The notes under the pieces were generated by a model that did not search any database, was not told where the DNA came from, and saw nothing but the letters and a program-made list of their open reading frames with translations. A program made the translations under genes and the position numbers. A stretch of DNA of 51,456 nucleotides, filler included, from Jimgerdemannia flammicorona (taxonomy: Eukaryota), in assembly GCA_003990765.1 (NCBI GenBank). It is 2 parts of 2 records of this genome, joined end to end, with 100 filler letters (N's around TTAATTAATTAA, not from the genome) between each part and the next. Parts side by side here need not be neighbours in the genome. Positions count along the whole stretch, not along the records: positions 1 to 25,686 come from RBNJ01000804.1; 1 more part is not named here. The stretch is one strand, 5' to 3'. Shown here one piece after another: positions 7,942 to 48,009 of this stretch; the stretch's first letter is position 1, and each line of letters opens with the position of its first letter.

Positions 7942-10598
7942 ACTTCTAAGCTATTTATAGGTTTATACAATGTCTGGATATTCATTAATAAGAATATTAT
8001 CAATAATATTATTTCTAATAAAGTAGTTATCTAAGAAGAGTGGTTTTTGGATTATTCTTTTAAGCTTGTTCTTATAGTATATAATATACTGAAACAAAAT
8101 AATCATTCTACAGAATAGTATTATCTATCTTATGTATATTCTAGGTATTATATTGGTAGATAGAATAGAGGTACATCATCTTTATATTTATTAGATTTGG
8201 TATCAGCATACTTTTGATAGGTTATGGTACTGTATATTATAGAGTTATAATATACTCAAGGTTATTCTTCATTTCATTCATACTGAAGAGATAGAATTAT
8301 TAGTTCATCTCAAGTTATCTAGAGATATAGATTGTATTCTATTATTTCTTTATTATAGTTGAAATAGTTAGATATAAAGATAAGTTAATACTCATTTCAG
8401 TGATCATTATTTCAGTAAGTCTTATAGATAATTATTAACTATTTTAAGTTTATTAATAAAGTTCATGGAGTAATCAGAGTTGGTAGAGATTCTTGACTGA
8501 AAGACATCTCAGTATCAGAGAAGGCATTATCTTTTGCTTTATTATTATCAAACTAAATTATATTATAGATATTCTTCATGGTATATCTAAGTTAGAGTAT
8601 TTGTAGAATATGATCATCTAGATTTAGAAAGGGTCTGACAGTAGTCTGAGTATACTTGATGTATTACTGGTTAGAGTTTTATATTATATTATTAATTTGG
8701 CTATATATAAAGTGATAACTATTTCAGAGATAGTAACTCAGAGATAGGAAATAAAGATACTATACTTATAAAAGAGGTTTCAGTATTTATATATATATAA
8801 TGAGTTTCTGATATTGAGATATCTTAGTAATATTAGTATTATAATAGTAGTTGACCATATCTTCAAGAAGACAGCTGGTTTAGTAGTAGTTTGAGATTTG
8901 TCTAATTTGGTAGACTTCACTAAGTATGTCTAAGGTATTCTATCTGGCTTCTACAAAGTAGAGGAGTAATAAGCTGTAAATATTCATTAGAGGTAGAGAT
9001 ACTATAATATAGTTGACAATAGTATTCCAAATATCAGCACAAATATAGTTGTAGATTTCAGAAGTTATAACTGAATATATATTTGAGAATTATGATTATT
9101 TATTTGTAGTAGTTCTTTCTTTTAGTGTGTAGTATATCTGATATATATACTTTTGATCTTGATTTGTAAGGTTCTATTTCTATTAATTATATATTCTATA
9201 ATTTTGATTTGACTCAGCTTTATGATCTTATATTTTATAACTTCCAACTAACTCAGTTTTATAATCTTATATATATATAGTTTCTGAATTTATTCTGAGG
9301 ATAAAATGTAATTTCTATTCCTTAGAGGTTATATACTTATATAAATCATCAGCCAACAAATATTAAGTTGTAACATAGTAGATATATATTGATAGAAGTG
9401 TGGCAGATTTCTTTATCTTAAATACTTGATCTTTTTTGACTTCTCAGAGTCCTCAGGTATAAGAGTTGATGAGTCTGAAGTATTTCTTCCTACAGATTTG
9501 CTAGTTTCTTACCTCTTTACTTAAACTATTTTGATCTGAGATTTATCTACTTGAGATATTAAAGATATTTATATAAGTTTTCCAGCTATATATGTAGTAG
9601 CTAATTTAAGACTTCTTTTTCTGTAAGTTATTTTGTATATTTGAGAGATTCATATATTTGTATAATCTATTTGATTATGAGTTTTATATAGCTGTATAAA
9701 TTATATAACTGAGATTAAGTAACTACTAAACTATAATACTATACTATATCAAAAATTAAATTCAGATACTATAATTAGATATCTATTCTTTAATTATTAT
9801 TTCTAATTCAGATCATTTATCATATCAAATTTTTTTTTTTTTGTTTTTCTTTTATTATCTCTCAACTATTTTAATAGTTTTTATAATTTTTTCTCATACT
9901 TCATTAAGAAGAAATAAACTCTTTTATATAGTCAGAATTGTTTAACTTTACTTTTTAATAAAGTATAATATATATAAGAAAGATCATCTTAAAATATCTA
10001 TTTTCAAAATTATTTATTATAAGTATTATAATTAAGTAACTTTTTGCAAAAATATAAAATTTACTATAATAATAATTTACTTCTTAAATAAATAGCTTTA
10101 CAATATACTTTAATTTTACAAAAAAGTAGTCTGAATGAGTAGTATTTATCTAAGTTTTTCAGAATTATTATAGGTTCAAAATCTAATAAATGTGATTAAT
10201 TTCCACTAATATAATATAATAAAATATATACTATTCTATAAGTTACTAATATTAGTTAAGATTTAAGTATAATAATATATTATATTTTTATTTTATATAT
10301 TTAAAATTCAGATTATTATTGTATTAAGTAATAAAATACTATATTATCTTATATATTGTAATGGTGACCCCAGAATAATGATATCAGCACAGAAGACAGC
10401 TTTTCCTTGCAAGCTACCAGATCAGAGCACAAGAAGATTATACGGCATATGAGATGAGAAATGATGACCAACTGTGAGTCATTGTGACCACAGCACAAGC
10501 ATCCTGAAGAATATAAAAGAAGGATCAAGGAACCACAGTAGCAGTGACCAACAAGAACCACCAATCCCAAAATAGCTCAAAGACTTACCATAAACAAA

Positions 10599-11417
10599 AT
10601 GCCTGCTGTCTGCCAAACCTCAAGATCAAGGAACCACCAAGGTATCTCAGTTGAAGAAAGAATGTTCCAAGACATCAGAAGAGTCATGAGGACCCGCTCA
10701 AGAAGGACTCCTAGTGTCTACCTGGGTACTGCAGACCCTTATCACTTTATTCTCTACTGCCACAAAATGGAAACAAGGATCACCATAGCCACCGAATGCC
10801 TCCAAATGTGGCAGGAGTACGAAATAGGAAACCTCCTCTGCCAGGAGTTCCCACAGGCCAGCACCCAAGAGCTACAAGATGCCACTTCCATGGATATATA
10901 TGAAATGAGGACAGCTAGGAAGATCCATCAGATCTTCAGGCATGTACCATGGTCGATCCCCAACTTGGAGTATGTTAGAGTCTCAGATTTCAGAGACCTA
11001 TCATCCTGCCGCATCAATGCACTAGAAGCCAGGGTGGCTACAGAAGCCCAGTCCACTATCACCCTCAACAGCGAAGAAGTAGAAGACTTCTAGCACACCA
11101 TCCTTCAGGACAACCCAGACCAATTCCTGCAAGGATTGATCTCAGTATTTCAAGGCCCAAGCATCCGGGTTAGATCTCCCCAAGACCCCACATTTGTTCC
11201 TTATTTTGTGGAAGAGAACCTCATAGACTGGAGAGCTCCAGATCTTGTTCTTGATTTCCCCGCCACAGCCGAACGTGATGACATCATCGATGACGTCATC
11301 CCGCATGACATACGCAAAGTACGCGAAACACGTGACCTGCATGATGAATTCGCGGATCTCATCTCCTTCAGTGATGATGATGATGAAGCCCCCATGATCC
11401 TGAACTTTCTGCTCTAA
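10599..11417 (+). pseudogene. LTR-embedded ORF of ~272 codons, unknown product, one in-frame TAG at 11091-11093
   Basis: ORFs 10599-11093 and 11136-11417 are in the same frame (offset 537 nt) and read through as EEVEDF*HTILQDNPDQFLQGLISVF. ATG follows an A-rich context (AAACAAAATG). Confidence 0.7.
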
Positions 11418-11425
11418 GTTCTATA

Positions 11426-11590
11426 TTACACTGGATAATGCTAGCACCAGTATTCTCATGTAATACTGGATAATGCCAGCACTGGTATTCTCATATAATA
11501 CTGGATAATGCCAGCACCGGTATTCTCATATAACACTGGATAATGCCAGCACTGGCATTTTGATGTGATACTAAATAATGCCAGCCCTGG
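11426..11590 (+). repeat. 35-bp tandem repeat, ~4.7 copies, in the U3-like part of the solo LTR
   Basis: Units start at 11426, 11461, 11496, 11531 and 11566; consensus TAATACTGGATAATGCCAGCACTGGTATTCTCATA with internal palindrome AATGCCAG-CA-CTGG(C/T)ATT. Confidence 0.92.
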
Positions 11591-13211
11591 AACTTGGTAG
11601 TTTTAGTTATTGGAATTTATATTTAGCTTTATATCTTAGCAACCATTGAATTATATTTTGTATAAATACTCCTCTTATTTCCTTTGAAATAAAGTCAGTT
11701 CCGGTTTCACTTACACACACTTCCTTGCAAGCAATCTAAGAGATAACAAGACAGTTAAAGATAAGAAGTTTGAGGACTATAAGACCTTGGGAAGGCACTC
11801 CAATAAGAACTTGCTTATAACAACTTGAGTTAGTCTAAGAGATATACCTTGAAGAGAATCTGGCATATTTGAAGGACTCAGCGACCACTATGTGACAATA
11901 TATATTTAACTTTGATTATTTTCTCTCTAAACCTCTTAGTATCTCTTTATTACTATAATTTATATTATAAATATTAATAAGATTGTGCTTAATTAATAAA
12001 TTAAAATATAAAATAAAATATATAATATTATTTGATTTTTTAATATAATTTTTCAAATCCTCTACTTTAGCAATCTTGTAGATAATCATATTATTATTTT
12101 GATATTAGTTTATTTAGTTTATATTTAAATAGCTAATAAAAAAAAATATATATGATATAATTTAACAAAATTATATCAATAAGATAAAGCTTTATATTTA
12201 AATTATAAGCAAAATTCTCTATAATGACCTATATTCATATTAAATTTTATGATAATATTAAACTTTCTAGATAAAGTCTGAGAGCCTCTATAATTTATTT
12301 TTAACTTTAATTAAAAGTTATTTTTTAATTATTTTCAATATTTAAGCTTTGTTATTCCAGTTTGAAAAGAAACAAATCTTTTAGCATAGACAGTGTGAAT
12401 GACTTGGCTCAATCTGAATTTTTTAATACATATCTTTATATAATATGGCACAGATACTGAATTGGACAAAACTTGTATCTCACATATGGGCAATCGGGTT
12501 TGCAAATTTTATTTGGTTGAGAAATCATCCAATCATATAAGGTTAGAATTTTATTTACATTTTCTTATTTTTGAAATATACACCTCTAAAATACTTTCAT
12601 TTATTTATTTCATATTTTTTAACGACCAATGGGTGAGGTTTTGGGGAGTACAGTTCACAACCACCGTCTTATGAACATGCATAAAGGGTACCGGGTTCTT
12701 GGTTCGCCTCCTTGTTATTGATCCTAGGGCATATCGTGGCAGAAAGCATCTCGCCAGGGGTTGTTGGTGAGGCTGATGAATTTTTAAGATACGTATTTGG
12801 TATTTATGCTTTTGTTACAGTTTATTTATTTTATTTTTATTTTTATTTTTTTCGTAAAGGTACAGAACGATTGTGGGTTTCCCTGTCAGAGAAAGGAGAA
12901 TGACCGTTCTTAATACAACAAATCCAATTAATAGCTAGGATAAAAACGGTTCAGTATGATGCCTGCATACATTGAATACAGGGTGAGCCGAAGGATGGCG
13001 CAAATTATCGAGGAATTCAAAGGAAAAAGGAAGAATTAGAAGACAGGATTATCTGCACGTCCTTGGAATGTTAACGAGCTATCTCTTCCAGGCCGGTGAG
13101 CACACTAAGTGGTCAAAGAGCCATGCGCTGTCTCTTTCAGCCAGTCAGTCAGATCAGTCTCAAATAAAATTGCCGGGCGTAACATTACTCGTCCTGCCCA
13201 AATAACGGAAG

Positions 13212-13243
<32 letters not shown>

Positions 13244-15056: not shown

Positions 15057-16048
15057 AAGTGCCCTTTGTATGGAATTCCCGCACCTATTGTATATTTGAT
15101 TTTTCAAAAATCACAAGGATGAGAGAAATTTTATATTGAAAGTCGGACTCTTATAGGTGAATCGGATCCACATCAGTGATTGATTATAACTCTCATATTA
15201 CAAGATAATCGATTTCTCCACCGTACAAGTGCCCTTTGTATGGATTTCTCGCCAACCTTTGTACATTTGATCATTCAAAATCTCGGTGCTGACGGAATTT
15301 TAAAAGTTGAGGTCTGTAAGTAGAACCTGATAAACATCAGTAAATAATTCATAATTCTCATCCTTCAAAGGAAGCAGTATCTCTATAGCGAGCGGCACCG
15401 CTGGAATCCGTTTATAATAGGGTGAAAAATTCTTCATACCCATCCACCCTTGTTCAATTCCCATTCCCCAACATGCTCATCGTTACACTCATCCTGTTCT
15501 GTGCTATACTGCTCACCGTCGTTCGACCTGGTTTTGGACAATGAAATTGACCTATCTGTGGACCGTAATTTTTCGTTCACGAAGATGCGTGCCTCATCAT
15601 CCATGTCATAAATCATTATTCAAGACCAGATGGTAGTTCCACATGCACCAGTCCGGATAGGACCTTTTGTGGTAGTACCGTGGTTGGATGGTGCTCTCTA
15701 ATTTTCGGCAATCAAATCGTCTTTCTTATCTCGTTTTGTTCTAATTTCCAGTTTGCACTCTAATTTCCATCACCGGGCTCAAACCCAACAGGCTGCGAAC
15801 CTTGTGGCTACGAAACATTCCACTGTCTCTTTTTGGCTCACACACTCGAGATATCCATACTTTTTTTCAACTTTGACGCATTTTCGGCGTGCTGCAAAGG
15901 GCGATATAGGCCTGATTCAACATTAGGAACACTTGCTTCCCTAAAATCCCTGCGATAGAGTTCAAAATTCAAGGACCCAAATCGTCAAACCAGCCAAACA
16001 CGCCAAGGTATCCACTTCTAGAAGAAGGAAACCAGCCAAAGCGGGTCG

Positions 16049-16087
<39 letters not shown>

Positions 16088-16925
16088 AAAATCGAGGACG
16101 GGCGGGTAAAAAAGCTCCGCCAAGCGGAACTGTAACGTTTCCCTTGGGCTCATGGTTGTTGCGAATAAAAGAAAAAATCTCGAATTTGAGCGCAAGATTT
16201 TCGCAAAGGTGTTATCACATAATTACAGTCTTGCGCGGTGTGTCGGGAAAACGCCGTTGGTTACCTAAGCACACGGACTGTCTACGCAAATCTCCGTCCC
16301 AATACATGGGCGCATGTTCCGAGCCTGTCAACATTCTTGGTATAATGCAAAGGGAGCGCTGACATGTTCCTATTATGGATCATAAAGGCAGGCATAGACG
16401 CCTCTTTTTGTATATTTGCGAACCACCGGTTTTGACTACTTATGTCATTGTTAGTAATGGACTTACGTCCAAGTTTCACCGTCACGTTCTATTTCACGGC
16501 CATCCCACCACGTCGTCAGCTTCTGTAGCGCTTCGATCACAGAATTTCACCAAGTGCGATATGTGAACCGATGCCCAGGTCGCGACGGGGACGTCGCTGA
16601 CGATGGCGATGACTCATACTTGTTGAACAGGAGTGATGAAGGTTGCTCGTCTGGTCATATACTGAGATGGGGGGGGGATTCCAGATGGATTCAGTTACCC
16701 ATTAGGTAATGAAATGATAGTGGAACCGGAGTGAATGAGGGTCAGACGACCCACGAGCATCTTTCAATGAATTGAGCGCTCTTTTAAGTAATAATGACCA
16801 AGGATACTGGGCCCTTGAGTATTGTTGTCTTCGTTCCTTCTTCAATCTTCATGCACACAATTACCTTTCACCAGGATCTCCCTTAAAGCGAATCTTATTT
16901 TTGGTCATAGGATGGGCAAGTTTAC
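15057..16925 (+). repeat. Diverged local duplication, copy 1
   Basis: Colinear shared blocks with 18080-20060: CCCTTTGTATG..ATTCCC, TTCATACCCATCCA..CTTGTTCA, TTTGCACTCTAATTTCCATC..CAGGCTGCGAACCTTGTG, GCCAAAGCGGGTCGT, GTCTTGCGCGGTG..TCGGGAAAACG, GATGGCGATGACTCA, CTTTCACCAG.ATCTC. Also an internal ~170-bp repeat (15057 and 15227). Confidence 0.85.
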
Positions 16926-18079: not shown

Positions 18080-20060
18080 ACCCTTTGTATGAAATTCCCA
18101 CACCCTTGTACATTTGATCTGATGCTGTCGCAGAAATTTCAAAGATTACACAAATAATCGAATTTTTGAATTAGAGATGAAATATTAAAGTGGGAAGCTG
18201 ATCCACATCAGCCATTGATTCATTATTATTTCTCCACAGCAAGCCGAACGGCTTGGAATCCGTTAAATAAGGCCACAAGATTCTTCATACCCATCCATCC
18301 TTGTTCAGTTCCCATTCGCCAATATGCTCTTCATCGCGCTATACCTGCCCGTTCTTTTCCTGGTCGCCCTCGTCCGAGCATTGGATTTCGGATGTAGGTG
18401 ACCTATCCATGGGCTCTGATATTCCGATTGAATAACGTGCCTCACAATCCATGTAACAAATCGTTATTCAGGCTCAGATAATCTTGCCTCATGTACCGGT
18501 CCTAGTGGACCCTGTGGTACAACCAAGGTTGGGTTCTGCTTTCTAACTTTAGGCAAGCAAATTGTCATTCCTATCTCCTTTTTGTTCTATTTTCCGGTTT
18601 GCACTCTAATTTCCATCCCCCTGCTCCAATCCTACAGGCTGCGAACCTTGTGTAACAGAAACTGGCTTCAATGTCAACTGGTAAGGATTTATGATGCGAT
18701 TCAGTTACAGTACACTCTGTTTTTCTCACTCGCTCGAGTTATCCAAACTCCGTTTCAGCAATGATGCGTTTCCATCGTGCTGCCAAGATCAATGTAAGCC
18801 TCAATCCGCAATACAAGGGGCATCTCTCGCAAGAAAGATCCCAGTAAAACCGGCCAAAAAGCAAAAAGTCCAACCCACCAAACCGGCCAAAAAACCAGGA
18901 TTCAAACCCGTCAAACCAGCTAAGGGACCCACTCCTGCGGGAAAGAAGCCGGCCAAAGCGGGTCGTAAGGGAATCAAACCAAAATCAAAGGTTTCCGCGT
19001 AAAAAACATCAACCAAGCGGAATTGTAATACTTCCCTTGAATTCACGGCTGTTGCAAGGTGTTTACAGTCCCTCTGAAGCATTGTCGGTTTTACGTGTGC
19101 AAATTTTTACCAATATCATGTAGCTCAAAATACTCAACTTAGGAATAAAGGAAAAATCGCGAACTCGAGCGCCGAGACGTTATCACATACGGTCTTGCGC
19201 GGTGGATCGGGAAAACGTCTCTGGTTACCTCAACGCGTGAACTGCACCTATATGCATATCTCTGTCAAAATAGTTCGTTGTAAGTTCTGAGCCTGTTCAC
19301 CTTTTGTTCTTGGCTTAGTCCGAAGGAAGTCCTGGTAAGACCGGTATAGGTGCCTCATTTTGTTTACTTCTCTTTTTTTTTTTAGCAACCATGGGTTTGG
19401 CTTTTTTTTTCTTACAAATAGGCAAGTGGGTTCGCCTTCATATTATAATTCACACTCCGCATCAAGCTATTTTTTAACCACTACATCCACAGAATTTTAC
19501 CAACTGGGGACGGCGCCGACGAACAAAAATACAGAAATGCCCTGGTACCGAGAACGAAGGGGGGGAGAATTTGCGATGATGTTTTGCGGTGGGCAAGACT
19601 GGGGTGTAAGAAAATATTTCAAAATACCCTTTTCAGGGGTTGATAGGCTCTGGATATCAGATATTTTCGTGTCTACGACATGAAAAAGTGTGATGGCGAT
19701 GACTCAAAGTCATTGAAGATGAATGGTGAGCATTGCTCTTTTGATACAGCCGATGATAGGGGTATTTCATAACGCGTGCACTTACATGGATTAGGTTACT
19801 CAATAGGTTTGATTCTAGTTGTAATGCAAGGGTAGCGCACATGCACGCGGAGCCAGAGAAAGCAGAACCAGGCGAACCACGAGTGTCCATCCCCATATAA
19901 TATGATGACGTGTGAGCTTTATTCAGTAATAATGATGGAAGATACTCGGCCCTTGTGCGTTATTGCTTTCGTTCACCCTTCAAGCCTTGTGCAAAAAATT
20001 ATCTTTCACCAGAATCTCTCCCTAAATGTACTTCATCGTTGTCCTGAGGATGGACAAGCG
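18080..20060 (+). repeat. Diverged local duplication, copy 2
   Basis: Same blocks in the same order as copy 1, offset by about 3 kb. Confidence 0.85.
18691..19002 (+). CDS. Putative small Lys/Pro/Ala-rich basic protein (KPAK repeats); start uncertain
   Basis: KIPVKPAKKQKVQPTKPAKKPGFKPVKPAKGPTPAGKKPAKAGRKGIKPKSKVSA*. The paralogous frame in copy 1 (IVKPAKHAKVSTSRRRKPAKAGRS-Kn-TKSRTGG*) ends at the homologous TAA (16107-16109). Confidence 0.4.
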   Translation: MMRFSYSTLCFSHSLELSKLRFSNDAFPSCCQDQCKPQSAIQGASLARKIPVKPAKKQKVQPTKPAKKPGFKPVKPAKGPTPAGKKPAKAGRKGIKPKSKVSA

Positions 20061-20711: not shown

Positions 20712-20742
<31 letters not shown>

Positions 20743-22859
20743 GGCCCGGATAGCGACAACCGATATCGCTTCCAATTTGAGTCGTTGCGGACCCTGTCCC
20801 CCAAAATATATAACTCATACTGCAACATCCACCCATACACGCTTTGTTATCCCTCACAAACCATGCGAGCTGCTCGTTGAAAGCCTACAGTGCTACCCGT
20901 TCCGGGTTCCATTTTCCCGCGTCCGTCTCGAGAGGGACTTTATGCATATGGGGGGCATTGTGGCATGTGTTGAGTGGAAGCTAGAAGACCGAAGTCGAGT
21001 AGATGCAGTGGAACGAGCGCGGATCGTAAGAGTCGCTGGGCGAGGAGTTGGCGGGTCGGCGGAATCAGCGGAGAGAGTATAAAAGGAGCCGTCGTCGTCC
21101 TCTTTCTCACTGTCGCCCTTTTCATCCTTGTCTACGAAAATCAGTTCGGAGAAATGTCAGTAGAATTGATCACACTTGTCGAGGTCCAGAATAAGCTCAT
21201 CACATCCTTGCACGCCTCTGGTTCTAGAGCACGGCGACGACTAAATGTCCACCAGCAAGCCGATATTTCCGCATACCGCGCGAACTTCCAGACAGCCTCT
21301 CAACACACGCTATTTGCATTTACTAAGGATCGTCAACCGCTTCGATCCCCGAAAGCTGACGAATTTACCCGCGGTCAATGTGGGCAATAGACAGGTCCAA
21401 ATGAGTATTGAAAAAATCGAAATGGTGCATATGCTGCGGTACAATGGATGAGACGTCGAGGTGATTCGAAGCACAGAGGCATGCGGGAAACTTCCGGTAG
21501 GTTACCCAAGGGGACGGACCAGTCTTTGAAGTAACATTTCGCGAGTTGGAGGTCTGTTTCTCGTCTGTGACGCAGAATATGGTGTGGCGTACAAATATGT
21601 ACAGCTCAATGTGCCAGAGACGTTATTAGCGTCGTCCCTGTCAGTTATGTGAATATAGCGGACACGGTTCTGGCAACAAAGTCGATTTGAGCGCCGTTTG
21701 ATTTGTGCGATAGGACGTTCGTATGTCGGGCTTCAGACTTGCGCCCGTTCGAGTTTTGCGGACGGTTCGTGTGTGTGGAATAAAGGATACAACCGCCGAT
21801 GGCTGTTCTGCGTGTGCAAGAATTACGCAGCGGAGTTACCACGCCGTTCGCTCGCGAACAATCCGAATTTATCATAAAAGGCACGAATGTCGGAGCTTGA
21901 ATCCCGCAAATTTCGATCGACTTTTATGCAGCGCCTGCTATCGTCACTGTCATTTCGGGGCTCCTCTTCCAGTAATGATCTGGGACAGGGGGCGGGTCGA
22001 CAGAGACAAAATTGGAGACCCGTGTGCTGTGCGACATTTGTTGGTTGTGTGGCTTGTGGCTTGCCATCATATATTTATATCTTTCAATTATCAGGTTATT
22101 TAATTGCACCTAGACTCTTCGCTGAGTTTGGTGGGATAACTGCAAGTTCTCCTACAAGCTTTGCCGCAACTCCGCGGAGTGACTAGATGTTCGGGTTGTG
22201 ACCAGAAGTTCTGCGGCGCGGAGCATTTCACGGAATGGTGAAAGTGCTAAGTGGAATATATATTTTGGGACGATATTTCCAAAAATATGCGGAAAAGACG
22301 GGGCGTTTCAATATTATTATTTTATATGCAACATCTAGACTTCATTTACTCCACCTTTACGTCATACGTCTATTTAACAAAACCTACCTCAGGGGGAGGT
22401 TTTTTTTTTGGTAACAATTTGTTTTATTGGAGATCAGACTTACTTGTAATTGCAGGAGCGGATTCTTTTTTTTTTTTTTTTTTTTTTTTTTAATAAAAAA
22501 AAGCAGAGCGGTGGAGTAAAGAACTGGCAACCGAAATCAGGATGCAGTTGTGCCACACACCACCTTTATTTCCTTGATATGTTCGATAGGAAGGTGTCGG
22601 ACAACATATCCTCTAGTTTGAGATATCCGCTCTTGACTTGGACATTGCTGCGTCATAGGAATGTGGAACCGAAATTTCGGCGCCGATTTTATCAGATCTC
22701 CAAAAATTGATAAACCAAAATGGGACCAGGTCAAGCCTTATTTGAACTTTCGGCTTAGGTAATAGTCACGTTAGATCAGCCTAGAGATCTTCGCGAACTT
22801 ATAAAAATGCCCTTGTTGCAGAAAACTATTGTTGGCACACAACGAACTTACTCAAATAA

Positions 22860-23682
22860 ATGGACACATATCAATTCTTTAACGAAACACCACAATACAG
22901 TCTCAGCCACCCTTCGGGAAAAGGCAAACCAACGAAGCAGCGTTGCAACAACTGCGACAAGAGCAGGAAGTTTTGCGACAAAAAGGATCCCTGTTCAAGA
23001 TGCCGAGGCCTCGGAAGAAATTGCTCGTACGACCGCTCCAACATGACGAAGGTTCTGCCATCGCCATTAGCAACGGAAGAATGGGCCACAGAAGAAAGGG
23101 CCAGAAAAAGACAAAATACTGATCATGGTATGTCCAAAGTTCTTATATTGACAGATATCTCTATAATGCACTATATATTATATCGTGCTTACAGAAAAAA
23201 CATTGTGTCTCCTATAAATTATGACTTCGGAATGGACAGATCACGAAGATAACGGAAATGATTTCATGTTCGGTTCAAACATCCAGGACCTGGCTGAGAT
23301 GATCAGGCAGCTCCAACAACTACGATCACGTAACATCGAATTGGAGACAGACAAGGGCAAATTCGACCAGCTTGTGGCGCGCAACCTGCTACTGGAGCTC
23401 GAGAAAGAAAGTCATACCGCCAATCTGAATAAACTTTCGAAGCGTGAAAAAGAGCTCGTCGAAAGCAACCTGCTGTTAGATGTCGAGAATGAAACTCACA
23501 TCGCCGAGTTGAACAAGCTTTCGAAGCGCAACAAAGAGCTCAAATCCGAGGTGCGCAAGAGCCAACAAGAGATAAACCGTTTGTTGGCGAGGAATCAGGA
23601 ATTGGAGACCGAGCTCGAGAGACACAAGCTGGAGTTAGAAGTCGTCGGATCTTATGATACGGAATTGGATGCTGGAGGCTAA
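22860..23682 (+). CDS. Fungal Zn(II)2Cys6 binuclear-cluster protein with a coiled-coil C-terminus; probable intron 23128-23194; possibly disrupted
   Basis: CNNCDKSRKFCDKKDPCSRCRGLGRNC fits CX2CX6CX5CX2CX6C. GTATGT...CTTACAG intron. The spliced frame joins ORF 23221-23682 (heptad-rich, 28-aa repeat) but crosses a TAA at 23215. Confidence 0.75.
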
Positions 23683-25686: not shown

Positions 25687-25786
25687 NNNNNNNNNNNNNN
25701 NNNNNNNNNNNNNNNNNNNNNNNNNNNNNNTTAATTAATTAANNNNNNNNNNNNNNNNNNNNNNNNNNNNNNNNNNNNNNNNNNNN
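25687..25786. other. Assembly gap with artificial six-frame-stop linker
   Basis: N44-TTAATTAATTAA-N44, exactly 100 nt, flanked by a G run and a 54-nt A run. Confidence 0.95.
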
Positions 25787-25843
<57 letters not shown>

Positions 25844-29005: not shown

Positions 29006-32000
29006 CTATTTAGTCCACCCATCCAACGTGCACTGGTTTTCAAGGGGGCTTTTGGCCTTTACTGCCTTCAACACATCAATTGTTTTCAGCTCGACAAAAT
29101 CCCTGGTGTTTGCACGATCTATCACAATGATCAGTTCTTTGCTTGCTGTATCATATCGGCTGGGGTGTCCCCTGAACTCGCACAGGTATGCAATGAGCAG
29201 GCCGATCGACGCAACGCCCAATTCTGCAGCTCTGCCGAACTTGCTGGCAAGACATTCGATGATGTCTTTCCTCTTCTCGGAGAATGTGTCATGTCGTGGG
29301 TTGTTGAAGAACATGCGAGGTGATACACTTCTGATGGCCTTATTGAAGTCGACAGTTGGTCATAACCTTGCCTGGACAAATACCGGGATCTTAACCGGGC
29401 TGTCAGGGTCTCTATTGTGGTAGACATTGATTACAAAGGTGATGTCAGGGCCCACCATCTTCTCCGGCAGAATGAACGGCAGTTTGGGATCATTGAGATA
29501 CGTGAGGAGGTCACCCGCCGCGCAGAGGTTCGGACAATCCACATTCCAGAGCCCAGTCAGGTGACGGTCTATTTCAATTCTGCTAGAAAACAACTTCGCG
29601 AGGTTGCCGTTGCCGATATAGGGCGAAAACAGCGGATGATCATGCAATCCCCCTTTCCTGCCATCAAACAGTTTTGACAGCAGCTCGAGCAGGTAGCATA
29701 TGAAAAGGTTCCCAAGATGGCTGGCATTCCATTGGTTCTTTCCGATCATTTTTAGTATCCTTCCAGTGACCGTCTTGTATGTTCATGCATATCGCAGATA
29801 TGCCATGACTGCTAACGGTTCGGATATTCCTGCCACCACCACAACGCCTTGCGAGCTCCGCTTGATCTTGTCGAGCCGCGCGAACCCAATCTCTACCGTA
29901 AGTGCAGTGTCTACGCTGTCCACAATGCTGCAGCCCGAGAAAAAGTGGCAGTCGATGATCGTGTCCTCCATATCCGCCCAGAAAGTCATTTCCGAAATAT
30001 GTGGAATCATCTGTGCCAGCTGGCCGACAATTTCACTCAAGGCCTCGTCACGCCATACTTCAACAAGAGCGTCCATGTCACCAGTCGTATGTTTGTCAGA
30101 GCTGTCAAAAGCACACTCCATATACTGGATGACATAGCGGTGACGACCGCGGATATACTCAAATATGGTGTTGGCCTGTCGCTCAGATAGAGTGCCCATA
30201 AACCACTCGATAAATAGCTTTATGTTGTTGACATCATTGAACCCATCTATTATGCAGATAAAGTCATCAGGCTGGATCATCTTGCCGGCCGCCACCACAC
30301 TGCCAGCATCAAGCTTCAGATCGTCTATGCGTAATCCGGTCCCAGACAGAACCGTGCATGTGCCGCAGTCCAGGTCCAAGACCATGCGCAGGAGGATTGC
30401 AAAGAAGGACCTTTTGTTTGTTGACGTTGTTGAATGAAACATATCAATATATTTGTCGACTGTGAGTTGTGCTTCGTCAATTGCAACTGGGACCTGTGCT
30501 TGATCTGGAATGTGGGCCTTGATCAACCCCCGTATCGTTGTCATGGTCTCCACGATTTATTCTTCAATGTCCCACCACTCCAACGACGTAAATGTCTTTG
30601 AGATCGTAACCCAGAAGTCATATGGATCCAGCCCGACATTCTTCGGAAGCAGTTGCATGAGCAGCCATATCTTTGGTGTAAAGGATTCTAGACCCAGCTG
30701 GAGCAGCTTGAGGAGAATGAATAGGCGGTCAGCCAGAACTGTGCGTATTTTGAAGAAGGCTGTGTCGCTGTTCTGCTGGTGCTGGCCTGCCTTTAGTTTG
30801 GGATACAACACACCTACTGCGGCGTCTAGATCGTGAGATCCCATATTCTTGCCAGTGTTCCCGGAGGCGAATGTGAGATATATGCCATATCGTTTGCATA
30901 GCAGCTCATAGACACTTCGCATTTGGGAAAGTCAGTGTCAATCGGACAGTAAAATCTACAGTGTACATCACCTCATATCACAATGCATGTTTATGCAAAA
31001 AAAACGACACTCACCCAGACATTCCAAGCAGCATGAATCAACTTCGCTCATTGGATTCTTTGATCAGCTTTCTGCATACATACCATTCCACATACCTGGT
31101 GTCATCTTCTAGATAAGGGAGACTGTGCAATATGAATTTGGGCAAATTGCTTCTCTTGTCGATTGAAGGAATGTTGGCATTAATGATGTAGGTTACACAG
31201 GGGTGATTGTTGATCTTGTAAGTATTCAGTGGAAATCCGGCAGTAATTATCGCAATAAACGACCTTTTCCAGGCTTTATACAGCACTTCGGCGGCGTCTT
31301 TGACCAGGTCGGCAGAAGGCTGGTATTCTACTTTGTAGGAGAATGGCTCTGGCGAAGGTATCCTTGCTGGCTCTGCATCAAGAGTTTTTTAGATAGGATG
31401 GTCAGACATATAACAGATGAGATGATGTTCAAAGTACACTTATATTGTTGTTGTGATAAATAAATACAATAGTTGATTGATTTAATGTTTGATTGATTAC
31501 AAGTGCCAGACTACATCTGAATACATTTCGGTACTATCGGGTCATGTATGTTCTCGTCATCATGCTGTTTCCACTTTGCACACTGTTTACTAACATTCTT
31601 AACCAAAAGCCCTGCGAGTAAAGTTGGCATGCCATTCAATAACTTTTGTTGTGATAGGCACAAGACCCTACCTAGCTTGTCACCACTATAAAGCATCGGC
31701 TTTGGCATGACAACTAATGGTTGGCGAACAAATGGCATGTTAGTCATCATCAATACGCGTAACCTGGTGTGTCAGCAGATGCATACTTGCCTGGTTTGTT
31801 TGCTTTGCAAGGTCGTCTCGCACGAGCGATAGATCGTGGCTCGACTGCAGGGGGTGCTACAATTGCAGGGTGCTGGACAACGATGTGAATGTGTTTGTCT
31901 GCAAGGTTGTTAGGGAAATATCGCCCAACTTTGTGCAGCGCGAGTAGCTTCATGCCTCCTAGCATCATCTCAATGTCAACATCGGTGGTAACCTCCAGGA

Positions 32001-32214
32001 GGGCGACCTCGTCAGATTCGTCGATAGGTATATCAACCTTCCAGAGCACAAGCTCATTTGCAGCAATATTGTCGAAATGCAGCATCATCTCTACCTTTAT
32101 CAATCTTTTGAAAGCTGCAATACTTTGAGTCATCTTGATTTCAACTTTGAAAGCACGTTCGGATAGAGGGGTGTCACCTTGAACCACGCAGTTGAGGGTT
32201 ATGGTAGTAGCCAT
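29006..32214 (-). pseudogene. Crinkler (CRN)-family gene: ubiquitin-like header + P-loop NTPase + PD-(D/E)xK-like C-terminus; multi-exon, with in-frame stops
   Basis: N-terminus MATTITLNCVVQGD..AFKVEI..ANELVLWKVDIP..HIHIVVQHP (LWKV and HIxV motifs of fungal CRNs); LLGMSG before an intron then RSVYELL (Walker A region, damaged); VAIDEAQ (Walker B); PEKMVGPDI...VFVQAR (REase-like). Stops at ~30554, ~29783 and ~29360. Confidence 0.85.
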
Positions 32215-32449
32215 GTTTGCAATGAGCAGTGTGCAGCATGTCAAAGCACATAACGGCAATTTGATGACTTCACGCGTTTGGTATGTGACATTGCTGCGAT
32301 TCGTCACACCCATAAAGTACAACCTGGCATAGTTGAATAAGTGTATAAGTCAGTCCCACAGATGCATCCTAGCATTTCAGTATTCCAGTATACAATATTG
32401 GAAAACCACACTCTATCCAACTATATGACAGATCCATGTTAGTAAAATA

Positions 32450-34788: not shown

Positions 34789-35425
34789 AAAGCCTATCCT
34801 ATAGAGATTATTAAAAATGATGTCTATAAGCAACTTTATAAGAGACCACCAGAAAGACCCAAGAAGTACTCTGTAGAAAAATAGATAGAAACTGCTACAG
34901 AAAGCCGAGATAAAGAAATAGATCACTGGAATAGGCTATATAAGATATTATTCAAGGAACTACTCCAGCCAATAAAGAAGAAAAGAAGAAGAAGCTTTGC
35001 AAGACCAAGACTTTCAAATATAATATCTTCAAGGATCTTAGCCAACAGAAGGTCAATGCAACCTTCAGCTAGCTGGCAGAAATACTCACATTCAGATAGC
35101 AAATAAGATATAGACTTGCCAAGATAACTAAGAAGTAAGGTTGGAAGATAACTGATGCCAATAATATTTAAGCAGACTTTAGAAAAGAGAGTGAAAATAA
35201 TCATAAGACATCTGCCTATACAACCTATTAAATCAAAGATAGAATCTTTGAAGCAATTATTAACACTAGAGTAGGAGAATGTCTCCTCAGTAAAAAAGCA
35301 GTAGACTGCCTAGATTGGGAGGTTGAAGAAGTAACCAAATTAGCATCTTTCTCCAGTAACATTCAGGTTACATGATCCTTTGGCAATACTTTCGACACAG
35401 TTTCTGGAGAAAAGCTACTAGTATC

Positions 35426-37455
35426 ATGGCGACCAATGAGCATCCAGAGGTGCGTACTGGGCAGGGTGGCCCTGGAGCGTTTGAATGGCAGCAAGTGGGG
35501 AGAGGCCCCGGCTTGGGGGGAAGTATGAGGGGCCTGCTGGTGGGAGACCATGGTGATGGAAGGGGTGGAGCTGGGGGGCAAGGGTCTGGCAGAGTGAGCT
35601 TTGCGGAGAAGGTGAAGAGGGGTTGGCAAGGAGCTGGACTGGAGAGCTGGCTGAGAGGGGGGAAGGTACCAGTAGTGACTACCAGGCAGCAACCTCTTGG
35701 GGGTACCTCTCTGGAGGGCTATAGGGGTGGAGCTGGGGGGGTAGCACCTGGGGCGGAGACTGCTGATGGGGGTGTGACGGGCAATCTGGAAAACAATCTA
35801 GATGGGACTGCTGATGGTGAGCTGAGTGGTGGGAAGGGCATGAGGCCCAGGGACCTGGCAGATGGTGTAACAGGACTGGTGGTGGCTCTGTTACTCAAGA
35901 AATCAATCTCGGTGTTTGCAGTCACACTGTGCTTCAGGGGCTTGGCAGTGACAGTGAAAATAGTGTTGGGGCTTATCACTAAGCAGGTGGCAGGAGCAGC
36001 TTCGGTGAAGTTTCTGAAAGGACTGGAGGGAGTGAAGGTGGGTTTTGAGGAGGTTGAACCGCTGGAGGAGGTACTGAAAGTTGAGTTGGTGGTTGGGGAG
36101 GAGTGCATTCTGATGGCGAGGTGTTTGAAATAGGATCTGAGGGTGGTCCAATTGTTGGTAAAAGGAGTACCCACAGTGACAGCGATGGAGACAAGGAAGA
36201 GAGTGGAGGATTTCATGGCGGAGTACGGTGAGGTGGTGGATATCAGATTCCGGGTCTGGGAAGGGACCACTCTCAGGACTGGAGATGTGGACGTGAGGAT
36301 TCGGCTGGCTGGGAAAGAGGCTACTGGGAAGGCGTGGGACTGGTCTTCGGTGATGGTGTGGGGAGCTTTCCTGTGTAAGGTGACATGGGTGAAAGGAAGT
36401 GAAGAAGAGGAGGAAGATTTATTGGAGGCGCTGAAAGAACTGGATGGGGCTGTGGAGTGGCAAGCTAAGGCCTGGAAGACTTTCGAGGAGTTGACGCACC
36501 TGGAGGTGGTGGATGGCAAGAGGATTCAAGTGGACAAGGTGCAGTGAGAAAGGGCTCAGGGGCGGAAGAGGCAGAAGAATTTGCTGGCTAAACTGGGGGG
36601 TGGACTACAGAAGGAGACGAGCATGAAGTTGGGTGCAGAAGGGGCCAGGGCGAGTGTCTGGGCTGGTAAGAGAAGTGGGAACGATGGGACAGAGACAGGG
36701 AAGGCAACAGAGATGAGGATTAGCGACCCATATGCTGATGACACCTTGGAGGTGTGGGATGAAGTCTGGGAGAATTCCCCCTCCCCCTCCTCTCTTATCA
36801 GACGTGGCCCGGCTTCCAGGAATAAGTCTGGGGAGGATGTGACGATGCTGGGGACCCAGCAGGTGAAATTTGGCATTCCAGAGGTGATGAGTGGGGACCA
36901 AGTAGTGGCGGCCGGGGAGGAGGAACTGGTGGATGTCCCGGAGGTGTGGGATGAGGACACGAGTGCTGGAGCTGACACCATGATGCTGGATGGAGGGAGG
37001 CCGGCGACCCCTGGCAGAAAGGAGGTGGGGAACCTACTTTGGATGTGCTGGATGATGAATAACCTGGCAGCGGAAGAGCTGGGGGAGGTGGATTTGCGTG
37101 AGATGGGTGACAAGCACTGGACACGAATTCTGCAGGGGGAAGGAGTGGCAATGGCGCTGAAGGTGGAGATTCTCGCAGTATATCTGGAGGAGGAAGGGTA
37201 TGAGGTGGACAAGGAGCAGGAGGCAGAGTTGGTGGTTGTCACTGGGGAGAAGGCTGAGTACTGTTGGAACAGGCATCATGGGTTGCAGCTTTGGCAGGAG
37301 GCTTGCATTGAGTACCAAGAGGAGTTTAAGGAGAAGGCTGATGAGGGATGAATGAGCTGTTGGCTGGATTGGAGGCTCAGAGGGCTGAAGAGGAGGAGGT
37401 GATGGCTGAACATAATCTGGACATGGCACAGGAGAGGATGGGCATGGAGCAGTAG
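35426..37455 (+). pseudogene. LINE B ORF1
   Basis: ATG at 35426; ORFs 35372-36133, 36143-36547 and 36581-37351 are in one frame separated by stops; 1-bp deletion near 37347 relative to copy D. Confidence 0.9.
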
Positions 37456-37485
37456 GGATTGATTGTGAACAAACAGTATTTTATT

Positions 37486-40400
37486 ATGAACAGTACAACT
37501 AATATTTTTTCTTTGAACGTAAATGGGCTAAGGGGCGCCGTTAGATGCAGGAACATTTTTATTTGGTTGAAGGGATTGGAGGCCGATCTCTTCCTCTTGC
37601 AGGATGTCAGGTGTGAGGATGACTCTGATAGGATGGAATGGACAAAGGAATGGGGTGGAGTGACGATTTGGAATGGCAAGGTCGGGATTCTGGTTAGGAA
37701 AGGCAGAGGGGAGATACAGGATGTGAGGAGATGGGAGGAGAGACTGGTCTGGGGGGAGTGGATTGATGCCAGTTGGGAGCCAGTCACAGTTGACTCCTGT
37801 TACTGCTCTGCTGTGTGGGGGGAGTGGGTGGATTGGGTGAAAGGGCTCCTGGAGAGCGGGATCCTTGCTGAAGCTGGGTTGGATATGCTTAGTGGAGATT
37901 TCAATATGGTTAGGGATATACAGCTGGATAGAACTGATGGAGGACGGGGTGCTGAGAGCAGGAGTGGGGGGCTGATAATGTGGGAGGAGGTCAAAAGGCT
38001 AGAAGCGCTGGTGGATGCTGGTAGGGAGTGCTGGGGGGACAGGAGGTATATATGCATTGGGCTGGAGGGCTGGGGACAAGGATTGACTGGATTCTGACAG
38101 CTGAATATTGGGGCCGCAATATTTGGAAGGTACTAGAGGTGGAATAGTGTCCGTGGTCAGATCACTGGGGCCTTTTGGGACAGGGGTGTTTTGGGGGAAG
38201 TGGGGATGGGCCTGGACATTGGCACCTAAATTCCTCTTTGTTGGATGGTGAGTCTAGGTGGGAGGAGTGGGTAAAAGACATTCAGCTGAAGGTGGAGAAT
38301 TGGCAGCAGGAAGGGGCCACAATTGGGGTCTGGTGGATGAGTATGAAAGAGATGGCCAGGCTATACTGGAGCAAGGCTGGTGGAGTGGCTGGGAAGCAAT
38401 GAAGGTGGAAAGTGCATTGGGCTTCTACTAGATTGGCTAGGCTCCTGGAGGAGTGGGTGAGACTGGCAGTAGTGGAGAGAGAAGAGGATTGGAGAACATT
38501 GAGGGTGAAGATGGAGGTTGGGGAGCTACAACAAGTGCTGCGGGAAGAGGAAGAGCTAAGGATACAGGGCCTGGTGGCACAGCTGTGTTGGCAGGGGCTG
38601 GAGGAAGGGGAGAGGCCTTCCAAGTTTCTCACAAGAATACTTCGAGCGAGAAGGGTTCAGCAGCAGTGGGAAGGGGTACTGGACTCGGAGGGTATACTAG
38701 TGCATGGTGTACAGGATATCCTTGGAATGCTGAAGGTGCGGTGGAGTGGATTATGGAGTGAGGAGGAGGGTGGGGTGGATGCTACAGCCATTGAACAAAT
38801 GTTAGAAGATTAGCACCCACCACAAGCTGAGAGAGTAGGTGACCTGATGTTGCCTGTAACAGAGGACAAGATCCACCAGGTTCTTGCCGCGACAACCTTG
38901 GGTATAGCGCCTGGAGAGGATAGCCTACCCTGGGACTTCTGGAAGCGAATGGTTGGAGTCCCGGGCATGTTGGGGGAGTTGACAGCTCTGTGTGACTATA
39001 TATTGCAGTCAGGTGGATGGGAGGGGGAGCAGGATCTTGGGCTGGTGACGCTGCTTTATAAGAACAAAGGTAGGTGAGAGGATTGGAAGAATTGGTGGCC
39101 GATCATGCTGCTAGACATGGACAGAAAGTTGGTGACTAAGGTGGTGGTTGCGAGGCTACAGAAGGTCACCCAGTAAATTGTGGGTGCTGAGCAGAGGGGC
39201 TTCATAGGGGGTTGGCTTATTAGAGATGGCATGGCCTGGGTACATGGAGTTATTGAAGGTGCTCGAGCCTGTGGACTGGATGGGCATCTTGTCTTCATGG
39301 ACCAGGAGAAGGATTATGACCGGGTGCGGTGAGTTTGGCTGGCAAAAGTATTAGATAAAATTGGGGTTCTGGTTACATTTCAGTTGGTGATGGTAGGCCT
39401 ACTGGAAAGGAGTAGGGCTGCACTTGTGTGTAATGGGTATCAAGGGGTAGCATTCCCTCTGGGTAGGGGAGTGCCCCAGAGGGACCCACTGTCCCCCATT
39501 TTGTATGTTCTTTCTTTGGAACCACTAATGGACAGGATTCGGCGGAGGATAGTGAGGCTCTCTATCTATGGAGTTGGCTGGAAAGTTGGAGCCTTTGCAG
39601 ATGACATGGTGGTTGGTTTGGGAGTGACTGCTGATGTCGAGGAGCTCAAGAAGACAGTGGAGTGGTATGAGGAGAACTCGGGGGCGAAGCTGAATTGGCA
39701 CAAGTACGAAACAATGGTACTGGGCAATGGCCTGGTGGGCAGGGAGGTTATTGGAACAATTGTCCCCAGTGGGGAGGCAGTGCGGTACTTGGGCATCTAC
39801 TTGTCAGTTTATGGGTCTGTTCTGCCCAGACTGTGGTGGGAGCAGAGGATTGGAGTTTGGGAGGAGGATCTGTGGAGTTGGGGGGGAAGACACTTCTCTC
39901 TGACAGGAAGGATCTCGATTTGAATGTATACTGGCTGCCGAAGCTGTGGTATTTGGCTTATCATCTGGACTTCCCAGCCTGGGTGGTGAAGTGATTGGTG
40001 AAGGTGGCCAAAGGATGGATTTGGGCTGGCAGACGGAGTCAAATTGGTTGGGAGACTTTGTCCCTACCAGTGGCGAGAGGTGGTCTTGGGCTGGTGGACT
40101 TCCCCAAAAGACTACACTGCTTGAGGGCATGGTGGCTTAAGAGGGTGGTGGAGCTGCGTGGAGGGGGCTGGGTTCCCCTGCTGCAGATGGTCTGGGAGAG
40201 GCAGTCATCACCAAGAGGCTCGACGGGCAATCTTCTTTCATTAGTTGGGCTTCAGAACACTGCCCAACTGAGATATAGAGGCTTCTGGTGGGGGATAGCC
40301 AAGGGGGCACACTGCATTGGTATTCGCTGGTGAGGGGATGAGGGGGAGAGGGCTTGGGGCCCAGCGATGTGGAGATGGGATGGCATTCTTCTGGGAGGGG

Positions 40401-41140
40401 TGCCGTTACTTGAGTTCAACATTGGTGATGGAATCAAATGCCAGAGGGGACCGGGCCAGGATCTGTGGCATAGTGGTTGATAAGGAGTTGGAATTGGTGA
40501 GGAGTGGGACTGGCATGGGGTTTGGACCTGGAGTGCTGCAGTGAAAAATTGGATGCTGCTGAAGTACTGGGTGGTTTGGTGGCACATGCTGAGGAGGAAT
40601 ATAATGCTTAACTTCCACTCTGGACACCTTGTCATAGGGGGCTGTTTTGACTGTGAGGAGTGCCATAATGTAGGGCAGAAAGGGGGATTTGTACAGATGC
40701 CAGAACATTGGCTAGGGGAGTGTGAGGTGTTGGGAGACTTTTGGCAGGCCATTGGGGACTGCTTGGAGGTGAGGTGTAGAGGAGACAATGTACGGGGGAG
40801 GTGGGAGGACCTGAGGGATCAATTGGTAGGGGGGGTAGGGGAGGAGTGGATTACTTTAGGCTGGGCATTGGCTATTTGGGTTGGGCTGGCCAGTCATTGG
40901 CTTTTTGTATTTAAGGAGGAGAGGTGACAGAGCTTGGGGAGCAGGGTATCATGGTGGCAGTGTCTTATGGAGGATACCTTGACAGGCTGGTGGCTTGGTT
41001 GGGGGCTGCAGGGGGGTCAGAGGCGCTGCTTGGTGGTGAAAATCTGTGGTCAGAGTGGTGGGAGAGTTGGAGTTGTTGGTGAGAGGGTGATCTTTATACG
41101 TGGAGAGGTGGGGAGGGGCCCCCCAATGGGGATCGGATAG
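37486..41140 (+). pseudogene. LINE B ORF2 (APE-RT-Cys/His motif)
   Basis: SLNVNGL, LQDV, GDFN, SDH; GVPQRDPLSPILY, GAFADD, YLG; CEEC...EHWLGEC. Confidence 0.93.
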
Positions 41141-41814
41141 TGGGGGTGATATTGTATAATTATTCATAGACTGGTAATAAAGATGGAGTCCAAGGGACTA
41201 TAAAAAAAAAAAAAAAAAAAAAAAGAAGTAACCAAATTAGTATTTATCATAGTAGATAGCACAAGAGCCACATCTCTGAGAAAGATCCAAGATATTCCCA
41301 TTAAGTTTGGAAGAGTAACTATTCCAGTAGATATGATTATAACTAATGCTACCAACTATGTCATCCTCATCAGTAGCCAGTGGCATTATAAAGTCAGAGC
41401 AATAATTGACCTTAATGTCTAGAAGATACAAATTATTTACTGAGATCAGAAGATACAAATTCCCATCAATTTCAATAAAAGAGTGCTGTCTGAGATAGAG
41501 AAAGAAGAAAGTAAGCAAGAAGAAACCTATATAGTGACTATTCAAAAAAAGAAAAAGAAAGTCAGATGGATCAGTAAAGAAGAATAGTATAAAAGGATCA
41601 TTAAAGGATATGTACCACAAGGAGTCTGTCCTCACAGAATCAAGATGTACTATATGAAACATATTGATGATTGCTATCAGTACATCAGTGGAATCAAGAA
41701 AATCTACTATAAAAAAGACAGAAAAGTCTCAAGAAACAAGCAAGATAAGAAAAGGAGAAGGAAGAGGATGACAAACCACCAGCTCTCCTAGAGGACAGTG
41801 ATGATGAAGAAGAA

Positions 41815-42225
41815 ATCAAGATCAAGATTGGGAAAATCCACTCCGATGCAGTTCTACCAGAATATAAGTCAGAGAATATAGCTAGAATAGATATTACCAC
41901 AGTAGAGAAAACTGAACTGGAGCCCCAGACAACTACTCTACTTATATCTAGTCTGGAGATGACTATTCTAAAAGACTATATCAGAATTCTCAAGACAAGA
42001 AGCAGCCTAGCCAAGAGTGAGATTATTATCAAAAGAGAAGTTATCAATTCAGACTATATTGGAGAAATACTACTTTTACTAGAAACTACAACTCTATAAT
42101 TCCATTTCCAATTAAGAAGAAAGACTGATTGATACAGATATTGATCTTCCCAGTTCTTTAGCCAAAGATCATAGAAGTCAAGAAGTTGGAGGAAATGGAA
42201 AGAGGAAGTATTCACCAGTACCAAG
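41815..42225 (+). pseudogene. dUTPase domain within the Gypsy pol, between protease and RT
   Basis: KIHSDAVLPEYKSENIARIDI (motif 1, AGxD), TRSSLAK (motif 2), REVINSDYIGEI (motif 3, GVIDSDYxGE), and after a frameshift KD*LIQILI (motif 4, GDRxAQ) and EEMERGS..FTST (motif 5). Confidence 0.85.
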
Positions 42226-42329
42226 ATTATAGAACTAGACCATAAGAAGGAGAAAACTACAAATAAGTATAGCTATATCTTGGAAATGAATTTCTACTCA
42301 AGAAGGAACTCAAGAAGATACTGTATGTA

Positions 42330-45871: not shown

Positions 45872-45950
45872 CTTTCTCCAGTAACATTCAGGTTATACAA
45901 TCCTTTGGCAACACTTTCAACATGGTTTCTGGAGAAAAGCTACTAGTATT

Positions 45951-47979: not shown

Positions 47980-48009
47980 GGATTGATTGAGAACAAACAG
48001 TATTTTATC

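Follow-up and report, generated by a model that had tools for sequence, protein, structure and literature searches.

A stretch of Jimgerdemannia flammicorona DNA (assembly GCA_003990765.1; 51,456 nt, hereafter the window) contains, at positions 10357 to 11897, a repeated element that is probably a solo long terminal repeat (LTR) carrying a conserved protein-coding gene, a structural statement that does not extend to the function of the protein. The window consists of two records joined with N filler, whose parts are not necessarily neighbours in the genome; positions 1 to 25,686 are RBNJ01000804.1, and the element lies in this part. The frame of the gene is wholly contained in the U3 region, between the 5′ end of the element (10357) and the TATA box of the LTR (11661). 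It is interrupted by one stop codon in the window copy and is open in the only other DNA copy that we retrieved.

We examined the ends of the element and found that it starts with TGTAATGG at 10357 and finishes with TGTGACA at 11897. Its terminal dinucleotides are TG...CA (TGT at 10357–10359 and ACA at 11895–11897) and ATATAT is present on either side, as a preliminary description of this DNA, made from the sequence alone, had noted (TG...CA ends, ATAT(AT) flanks). A target-site duplication of 4–6 bp is thus found in the form of ATAT or ATATAT. An identical 6-mer across both flanks has a chance of 0.002 and an identical 4-mer of 0.015 (flank resampling), and the duplication is weak evidence when taken alone, as the flanks are AT-rich. 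The G+C content is 0.432 within the element, compared to 0.153 over 750 bp of the left flank and 0.246 over 1000 bp of the right flank. A Helitron or a terminal-inverted-repeat transposon was considered and ruled out, given the TGT...ACA ends and an inverted repeat of at most 3 bp, as was a retroposed mRNA, since there is no A-tail at 11897. No second copy of the element was found within the window by repeat search, blastn or tblastn.

To define the borders of the repeat, we used contigs from public sequencing runs aligned to positions 9857–12397 at a likeness of at least 85% (runs X1, X4, X9 and X22). Element-related sequence is present in 20 runs from 15 studies among the matches listed, mostly soil metagenomes, with a best word share of 0.39. 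The aligned records comprise 1903 contigs from X1, 235 from X4, 47 from X9 and 4 raw reads from X22; as all four of these reads are less than 90% alike, X22 is without a close copy of the element. In X1, X4 and X9 the contig depth was 0 in every flank bin and reached hundreds to thousands from 10367 to 11896, with 20.5 in the bin containing 10357 and 3.4 (X1), 0.1 (X4) and 165 (X9) in the bin past 11897. Since the depth is confined to 10357–11897, the element is a dispersed repeat, its copies having exactly these two ends in common.

The sequences that adjoin the element in other copies are informative as to its nature. A tRNA primer-binding site, complementary to the CCA end, is expected just past a 5′ LTR, and a polypurine tract just before a 3′ LTR. 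Past 11897, 10 X1 contigs run on into one sequence, CTTGGTGCCCATTGG (agreement 1), which is similar to a primer-binding site in having TGG two bases past the element end (at +3). A 13-mer of this motif, searched for in the window with up to two mismatches, gave 2 matches versus 1.8 expected, i.e., nothing. Upstream of 10357, 3 X4 contigs end in a purine run, AGGAGGAAGA, resembling a polypurine tract. The X9 contigs exit the element at 11900, 11905 and 11915 into three unrelated sequences and, because they diverge within 18 nt of 11897, many copies must end at this position; these continuations look as would be expected of host DNA beside 3′ or solo LTRs.

The common continuation in the 10 X1 contigs would be equally expected if the element were a truncated piece of some longer mobile element lacking such LTRs, with the gene being internal and the shared sequence past 11897 being simply more of the same element, and it is also true that no paired copies were seen. 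We consider this improbable, as it does not account for two breakpoints that fall at TG and CA between identical ATATAT flanks, for the X9 contigs that part into unrelated sequences so close to the end, for a continuation with TGG two bases past the end and a purine run abutting the start in other copies, or for a TATA box followed by AATAAA 210–240 nt before the end, as at a U3/R border. Conversely, the combination of one shared and several different continuations with the TG...CA ends, the duplication and this TATA-AATAAA pair leads us to assign 10357–11897, with good confidence, to the LTR of an LTR retrotransposon. The LTR nature proposed in the preliminary description is supported by the ends, the duplication, the sharp repeat borders, and the primer-binding-site-like sequence 3′ and purine tract 5′ of other copies. 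The window copy is most likely a solo LTR, since its AT-rich flanks contain neither a purine tract nor a primer-binding site and since the duplication is present. In complete elements, this LTR would be expected to occur as a pair around gag-pol.

We then looked at the open reading frame, which had been described as a frame of about 272 codons with a single TAG, and recovered it at 10599–11417, with the TAG at 11091–11093 as its sole break. The suggested check for a sense codon at 11091 in other copies gave a clear result: position 11092 is a G, giving TGG (Trp), in nearly all of the contig depth (863.6 of 870.4 in X1, 21 contigs; 49.7 of 53.4 in X4, 9 contigs; 745.3 of 745.3 in X9, 2 contigs). 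By its sequence, the window copy is dead, through the change from TGG to TAG together with other private changes. Protein relatives were found by a word-index search (6 at 58–90% identity, from 349 candidates), by an exhaustive search of 1.84 billion cluster representatives (5) and by a profile search (11, down to 27% identity). Related DNA loci were absent from viral contigs (0 of 332 stretches) and from prokaryote genome contigs (0 of 266), and metagenome contigs yielded 1 in 537. This contig, L001 (1345 nt), is the sole related DNA copy retrieved; it starts at GAATATAAAAG, is without both element ends and is 72% identical to the window element in aligned columns. L001 carries an intact frame of 323 codons in the same place and with the same layout as the window gene.

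A ratio of non-synonymous to synonymous substitution rates (dN/dS) across copies had also been proposed as a check, and between the window copy and L001, i.e., for one pair of copies, it is 0.138 over codons 1–212 (Nei-Gojobori), with 63/40/95 differences at the three codon positions. A blastn comparison of these two copies aligns the coding part only (69.8% over 669 columns), so that within the LTR the strongest constraint falls on the coding core. We therefore examined the view that the frame is a chance or decayed one in a long LTR from which no protein is made. The stop in the window copy would be in keeping with it, as would the lack of a known domain and of an RNA run on record, but it is contradicted by the low dN/dS and the excess of third-position differences, by intact frames in L001 and in relatives down to 27% identity, and by the sense codon at the TAG site in nearly all other copies, so that we regard it as very improbable indeed. 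In summary, the comparison of copies indicates that the frame is a true gene, which is conserved and subject to purifying selection.

The conservation does not extend over the entire frame. From codon 213 to the end, dN/dS between the window copy and L001 rises to 0.73, and at 11217–11386, which encodes an acidic linker and the tail, the depth falls 5- to 20-fold or to zero versus the rest of the LTR (366 and 88 in X1, compared to about 800–1900 elsewhere in the gene; 0.84 and 6.9 in X4; 0 and 0 in X9). Public contigs contain in-frame insertions of 3 and 6 bases past 11371. The hypervariable tail nonetheless closes with a conserved hydrophobic motif in most members. Longer or fused forms of the protein were not found among 8000 candidates, which is weak evidence.

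The regulatory signals were examined in the window copy and in L001 (Table 1). The tandem repeats, TATA box and poly-A signal of the preliminary description are found at 11419–11585, 11661 and 11688. A further TATA box, absent from its list, lies upstream at 10512, 80 nt 5′ of the ATG, and the 11-mer that contains it, GAATATAAAAG, is identical in L001 despite the overall identity of 72%. In both copies there is no ATG between this upstream TATA box and the start codon, which has an A-rich context with an A at -3. The upstream TATA box may act as the promoter of the LTR-borne gene. The 35-bp array, 75–240 bp upstream of the LTR TATA box, is by its position a putative U3 enhancer. Downstream of it, the LTR TATA box is followed by AATAAA, a candidate poly-A signal, with the same spacing in L001 as in the window copy. 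On sequence grounds, the order of promoter and poly-A signal of a U3-R-U5 structure is thus present in both copies. An Rfam search over 10000–12300 gave 4 rows, all well short of gathering scores.

Table 1. Features of the element and its immediate flanks (positions in the window).
Feature	Position	Strand	Basis or remark
Element, most likely a solo LTR	10357..11897	+	1541 bp; TGT...ACA ends, GC jump, public-contig depth limits
Putative target-site duplication, left copy ATATAT	10351..10356	.	sequence
Putative target-site duplication, right copy ATATAT	11898..11903	.	sequence
Predicted U3	~10357-11690	+	from TATA and AATAAA positions
Upstream TATA box TATAAAAG, candidate promoter for the accessory gene	10512..10519	+	sequence; conserved in L001
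Accessory gene, 272 codons + stop (pseudogene in the window copy)	10599..11417	+	ATG 10599, stop 11415-11417
In-frame TAG, sole break of the frame	11091..11093	+	aligned column W in 9/10 relatives, H in 1
Hypervariable part of the gene (acidic linker + tail)	11217..11386	+	depth dip in X1, X4, X9; dN/dS 0.73
35-bp tandem array, 4.8 copies (putative U3 enhancer)	11419..11585	+	period 35, 85% matches; CTGG/CCAG short inverted repeats per copy
LTR TATA box TATAAATA, putative promoter for the genomic RNA of the element	11661..11668	+	TGTATAAATAC conserved in L001
AATAAA, the only one in the element (candidate poly-A signal)	11688..11693	+	~27 nt past the LTR TATA box, expected U3/R border
Predicted short R	~11690-11715	+	from TATA and AATAAA positions
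Predicted U5	~11715-11897	+	from TATA and AATAAA positions

As the unit amounts to a complete gene (TATA box, open reading frame and AATAAA) and its protein has no retroelement domain, it could be thought that we are dealing with an orphan gene of the host present in many copies, or with a host gene that an LTR has captured in recent times, as opposed to one that has long belonged to the retrotransposon; two relatives from the Joint Genome Institute (JGI) are indeed named just "hypothetical protein". However, the repeat reaches 155 nt 5′ of the TATA box of the gene and about 200 nt past the poly-A signal, as far as the TG/CA ends and the duplication, and hundreds to thousands of contigs give its non-coding ends the same depth as the gene. 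In addition, L001 retains the layout of gene, TATA box and AATAAA even though most synonymous sites have changed (dS about 1.8), so that the association of gene and LTR is old. Finally, no relative beyond the small family was found in the 1.84 billion cluster representatives or among longer proteins. A host origin of this kind therefore seems to us a poor explanation, with little chance of being correct, and we retain that of a gene belonging to the LTR.

We investigated whether the protein resembles any known protein or fold. The statement that it shows no gag, pol or env motif holds, as there is no such Pfam match: P0001 gave 0 Pfam families, and the 11 members, searched at E ≤ 1, yielded just two families, ATG5_HBR (best 0.028, in 3 members) and NpmA (in 1 member), which we judged to be chance. 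A gag or zf-CCHC match was found in 0 of the 11 members, and no fold match was above noise; a remote capsid-like fold is conceivable. A sequence-profile search of the PDB gave 0 matches at E ≤ 10, and look-alikes in the ESM Atlas reached a best feature score of 0.83 and a best template modelling (TM) score of 0.33, both below the stated noise. The model of the whole protein is poor (predicted local distance difference test score, pLDDT, 50.3), while the core (residues 17–216 of L001, 15-row alignment) is modelled as a bundle of helices plus a small hairpin (pLDDT 71.3, predicted TM score 0.62). The structure search that had been suggested was carried out with this core model, and Foldseek returned no match at E ≤ 0.001 against either the PDB or BFVD; an exhaustive VIA search had a best Z of 4.5, below the stated noise. 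A likeness to many helix-turn-helix regulators, seen in the whole-protein VIA search (best Z 4.4, all sub-noise), was rejected, the pattern being gone once the more reliable model of the core was used. The protein lacks a membrane segment (top 19-residue hydropathy 0.74–1.07), the isoelectric point is 4.5–4.9, and the net charge of P0003 is +8 over residues 1–60 and -14 over residues 211–270. Sequence and model together indicate that the LTR-borne protein is soluble and intracellular, with a basic head formed by the N-terminal 60 residues, followed by about 150 residues of helical core and by an acidic tail of variable sequence; its fold is unassigned.

These features suggest how the window copy could have arisen and how the gene could be expressed. 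Recombination between the two LTRs of one insertion would leave a solo LTR, with the ATATAT duplication kept on both sides. U3 would house a complete gene, with its TATA box at 10512, a first AUG at 10599 in a good context and 272 codons, and the gene would use the single AATAAA of the LTR at 11688, the first poly-A signal after its stop. Each LTR would then make a monocistronic mRNA of about 1.2 kb, with the genomic promoter (11661) sitting in its 3′ untranslated part. As AATAAA lies at the expected start of transcription, about 27 nt past the TATA box, RNA started in the 5′ LTR would lack the signal and RNA ending in the 3′ LTR would contain it; genomic RNA from the 5′ LTR would thus skip AATAAA, to be used by the RNA ending in the 3′ LTR and by the mRNA of the gene. 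The transcript structure of the LTR-borne gene is deduced from these signals. Any LTR of the family, whether paired or solo, could then supply the protein. The idea in the preliminary description that each solo LTR retains the gene is plausible, as the unit encloses it together with its promoter and poly-A signal; the gene was seen in two DNA copies (the window copy and L001).

As to the role of the protein, a basic head, a folded core and an acidic tail bearing hydrophobic anchors make up a charge layout shared by many transcriptional activators, and in retroviruses a gene located at or within the 3′ LTR often serves to regulate the virus's own LTR. Since the charge layout of the LTR-borne protein is activator-like and retroviral 3′-LTR genes often have this use, we infer that it may be a trans-acting regulator of the element. 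It is possible, and we propose it tentatively, that it activates transcription through U3, perhaps via the 35-bp repeats in this lineage; that it antagonizes host silencing seems to us less likely still. The 35-bp array cannot be a family-wide response element, as it is absent from L001, but it could be a response element in the lineage of the window copy. In its widest form, the proposal is that of a fungal LTR family with a self-contained U3 gene, in which all LTRs, including solo ones, express a trans-acting booster with a new fold (a transactivator or a silencing blocker), a "public good" to which dead copies contribute; this is speculative, and we put it forward as a possibility that we would not bet on.

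Several observations weigh against the interpretation given here. No complete element was seen in which gag-pol lies between two such LTRs, the window copy being single and L001 without ends. The primer-binding-site-like motif is 15 nt long, the window contains no tRNA gene to which it could be matched, and the purine tract AGGAGGAAGA comes from 3 contigs only, with an agreement of 0.68. The commonest size of a target-site duplication is 5 bp, and a 5-bp duplication is out of phase and does not fit the flanks. The dN/dS ratio is from a single comparison in which dS is near saturation (1.8). No run matching the element is recorded as RNA, X9 and X20 being RNA by guess only. Concerning the role, the fold searches gave nothing above noise, the charge layout is the one feature in favour of an activator, and the 35-bp array is missing from L001.

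To our knowledge, additional genes of LTR retrotransposons have been described in the internal region alone, and genes within the LTR only in a few retroviruses. We found no report of a protein gene inside the LTR of a fungal retrotransposon among the open-access papers searched. The closest likeness in position is that to sag of mouse mammary tumour virus (MMTV), a frame of about 300 codons that lies wholly in U3 and so is present in both LTRs and in any solo LTR. MMTV Sag is a type II membrane glycoprotein and a superantigen, whereas the LTR-borne protein has no membrane segment or Pfam match, its host is a fungus and the gene has an apparent TATA box of its own in the LTR. Foamy-virus Tas/Bet, Tax of human T-cell leukaemia virus (HTLV; 21-bp U3 repeats) and lentiviral Nef, which overlaps U3, are similarly positioned at or in the 3′ LTR, and the retroviral activators also share the basic head and acidic tail and, in the window lineage, tandem U3 repeats upstream of the TATA box. 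Unlike in these 3′-end regulators, the repeats are missing in L001, and there is no sequence or fold likeness (0 matches in the PDB profile search at E ≤ 10 and none in BFVD at E ≤ 0.001). The Cassandra terminal-repeat retrotransposon in miniature (TRIM), with a 5S RNA gene in its LTRs, likewise has a complete foreign transcription unit in each LTR; in that case it is an RNA gene of RNA polymerase III, and here it is a protein-coding gene.

A comparison can also be made with the additional open reading frames (aORFs) of LTR retrotransposons, which, according to a review (PMC7264820), include gene23 of maize Grande and those of rice RIRE2, Silene Retand and Botrytis Boty. That review describes them as internal, in most cases positioned between pol and the 3′ LTR and frequently in antisense orientation, with Grande gene23 having its own promoter and encoding a nuclear protein, and proposes for aORFs a regulatory role like that of accessory proteins (PMC7264820). 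As far as they are described there, aORFs are similar to the present gene in being conserved among copies and in bearing no resemblance to known proteins, and differ from it in that the present gene is in the sense orientation and wholly inside the LTR, not internal (PMC7264820). Because it is wholly inside the LTR, the present gene is duplicated with the LTR and persists in solo LTRs.

Other mobile sequences and genes are present elsewhere in the window. Copies of a retrotransposon resembling a long interspersed nuclear element (LINE) lie at 1 to about 5600 (-), 35346–41225 (+) and 45871–51456 (+), with a partial copy at 44439–45556 (+); the two + copies are 87–93% alike, compared to 70–79% versus the - copy. 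They have RVT_1, a weak endonuclease match, an A-run tail (41199–41225) and an unusually strong GC skew between strands (about 0.4–0.5). Between this LINE A-tail and the next LINE-related block, at about 41230–43540 (+), there is a degenerate fragment of a Ty3/Gypsy pol that is AT-rich and interrupted by numerous stops, containing a protease-like stretch, a dUTPase (Pfam 9e-08), the start of a reverse transcriptase and RT_RNaseH_2 (1.5e-10). A frame with a Crinkler effector N-terminal domain (31750–32349, -; Pfam 2.7e-19) adjoins AT-rich repeat DNA, and a fungal Zn(2)-Cys(6) (Zn2Cys6) binuclear cluster domain at 22860–23249 (+) is just over the cut-off (Pfam 2.1e-04). This last domain is the chief sign of a fungal host in the sequence and, taken with the Crinkler domain, the LINE copies, the Gypsy fragment and the predominance of soil metagenomes among the matching runs, it suggests a soil fungus. 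In the gene-bearing part, 15380–16653 and 18231–19743 are 70–89% alike in several blocks 2.85–3.09 kb apart, which resembles a diverged tandem duplication. Pure A/T runs of 25–55 bases occur in the gene-bearing region at 13210–13240, 16053–16086, 25787–25840 and 20720–20748 (T), and the run at 25787–25840 adjoins an N run at about 25778–25786.

If the interpretation proposed here is true, solo LTRs would be possible gene copies, beyond being promoters alone, and a retroelement accessory protein of unassigned fold, which can be put to the test, would be added for fungi, probably for those of soil or mycorrhiza whose repeat loads are large. For genome annotation, it would mean that such LTR genes are miscounted as high-copy orphan genes of the host.

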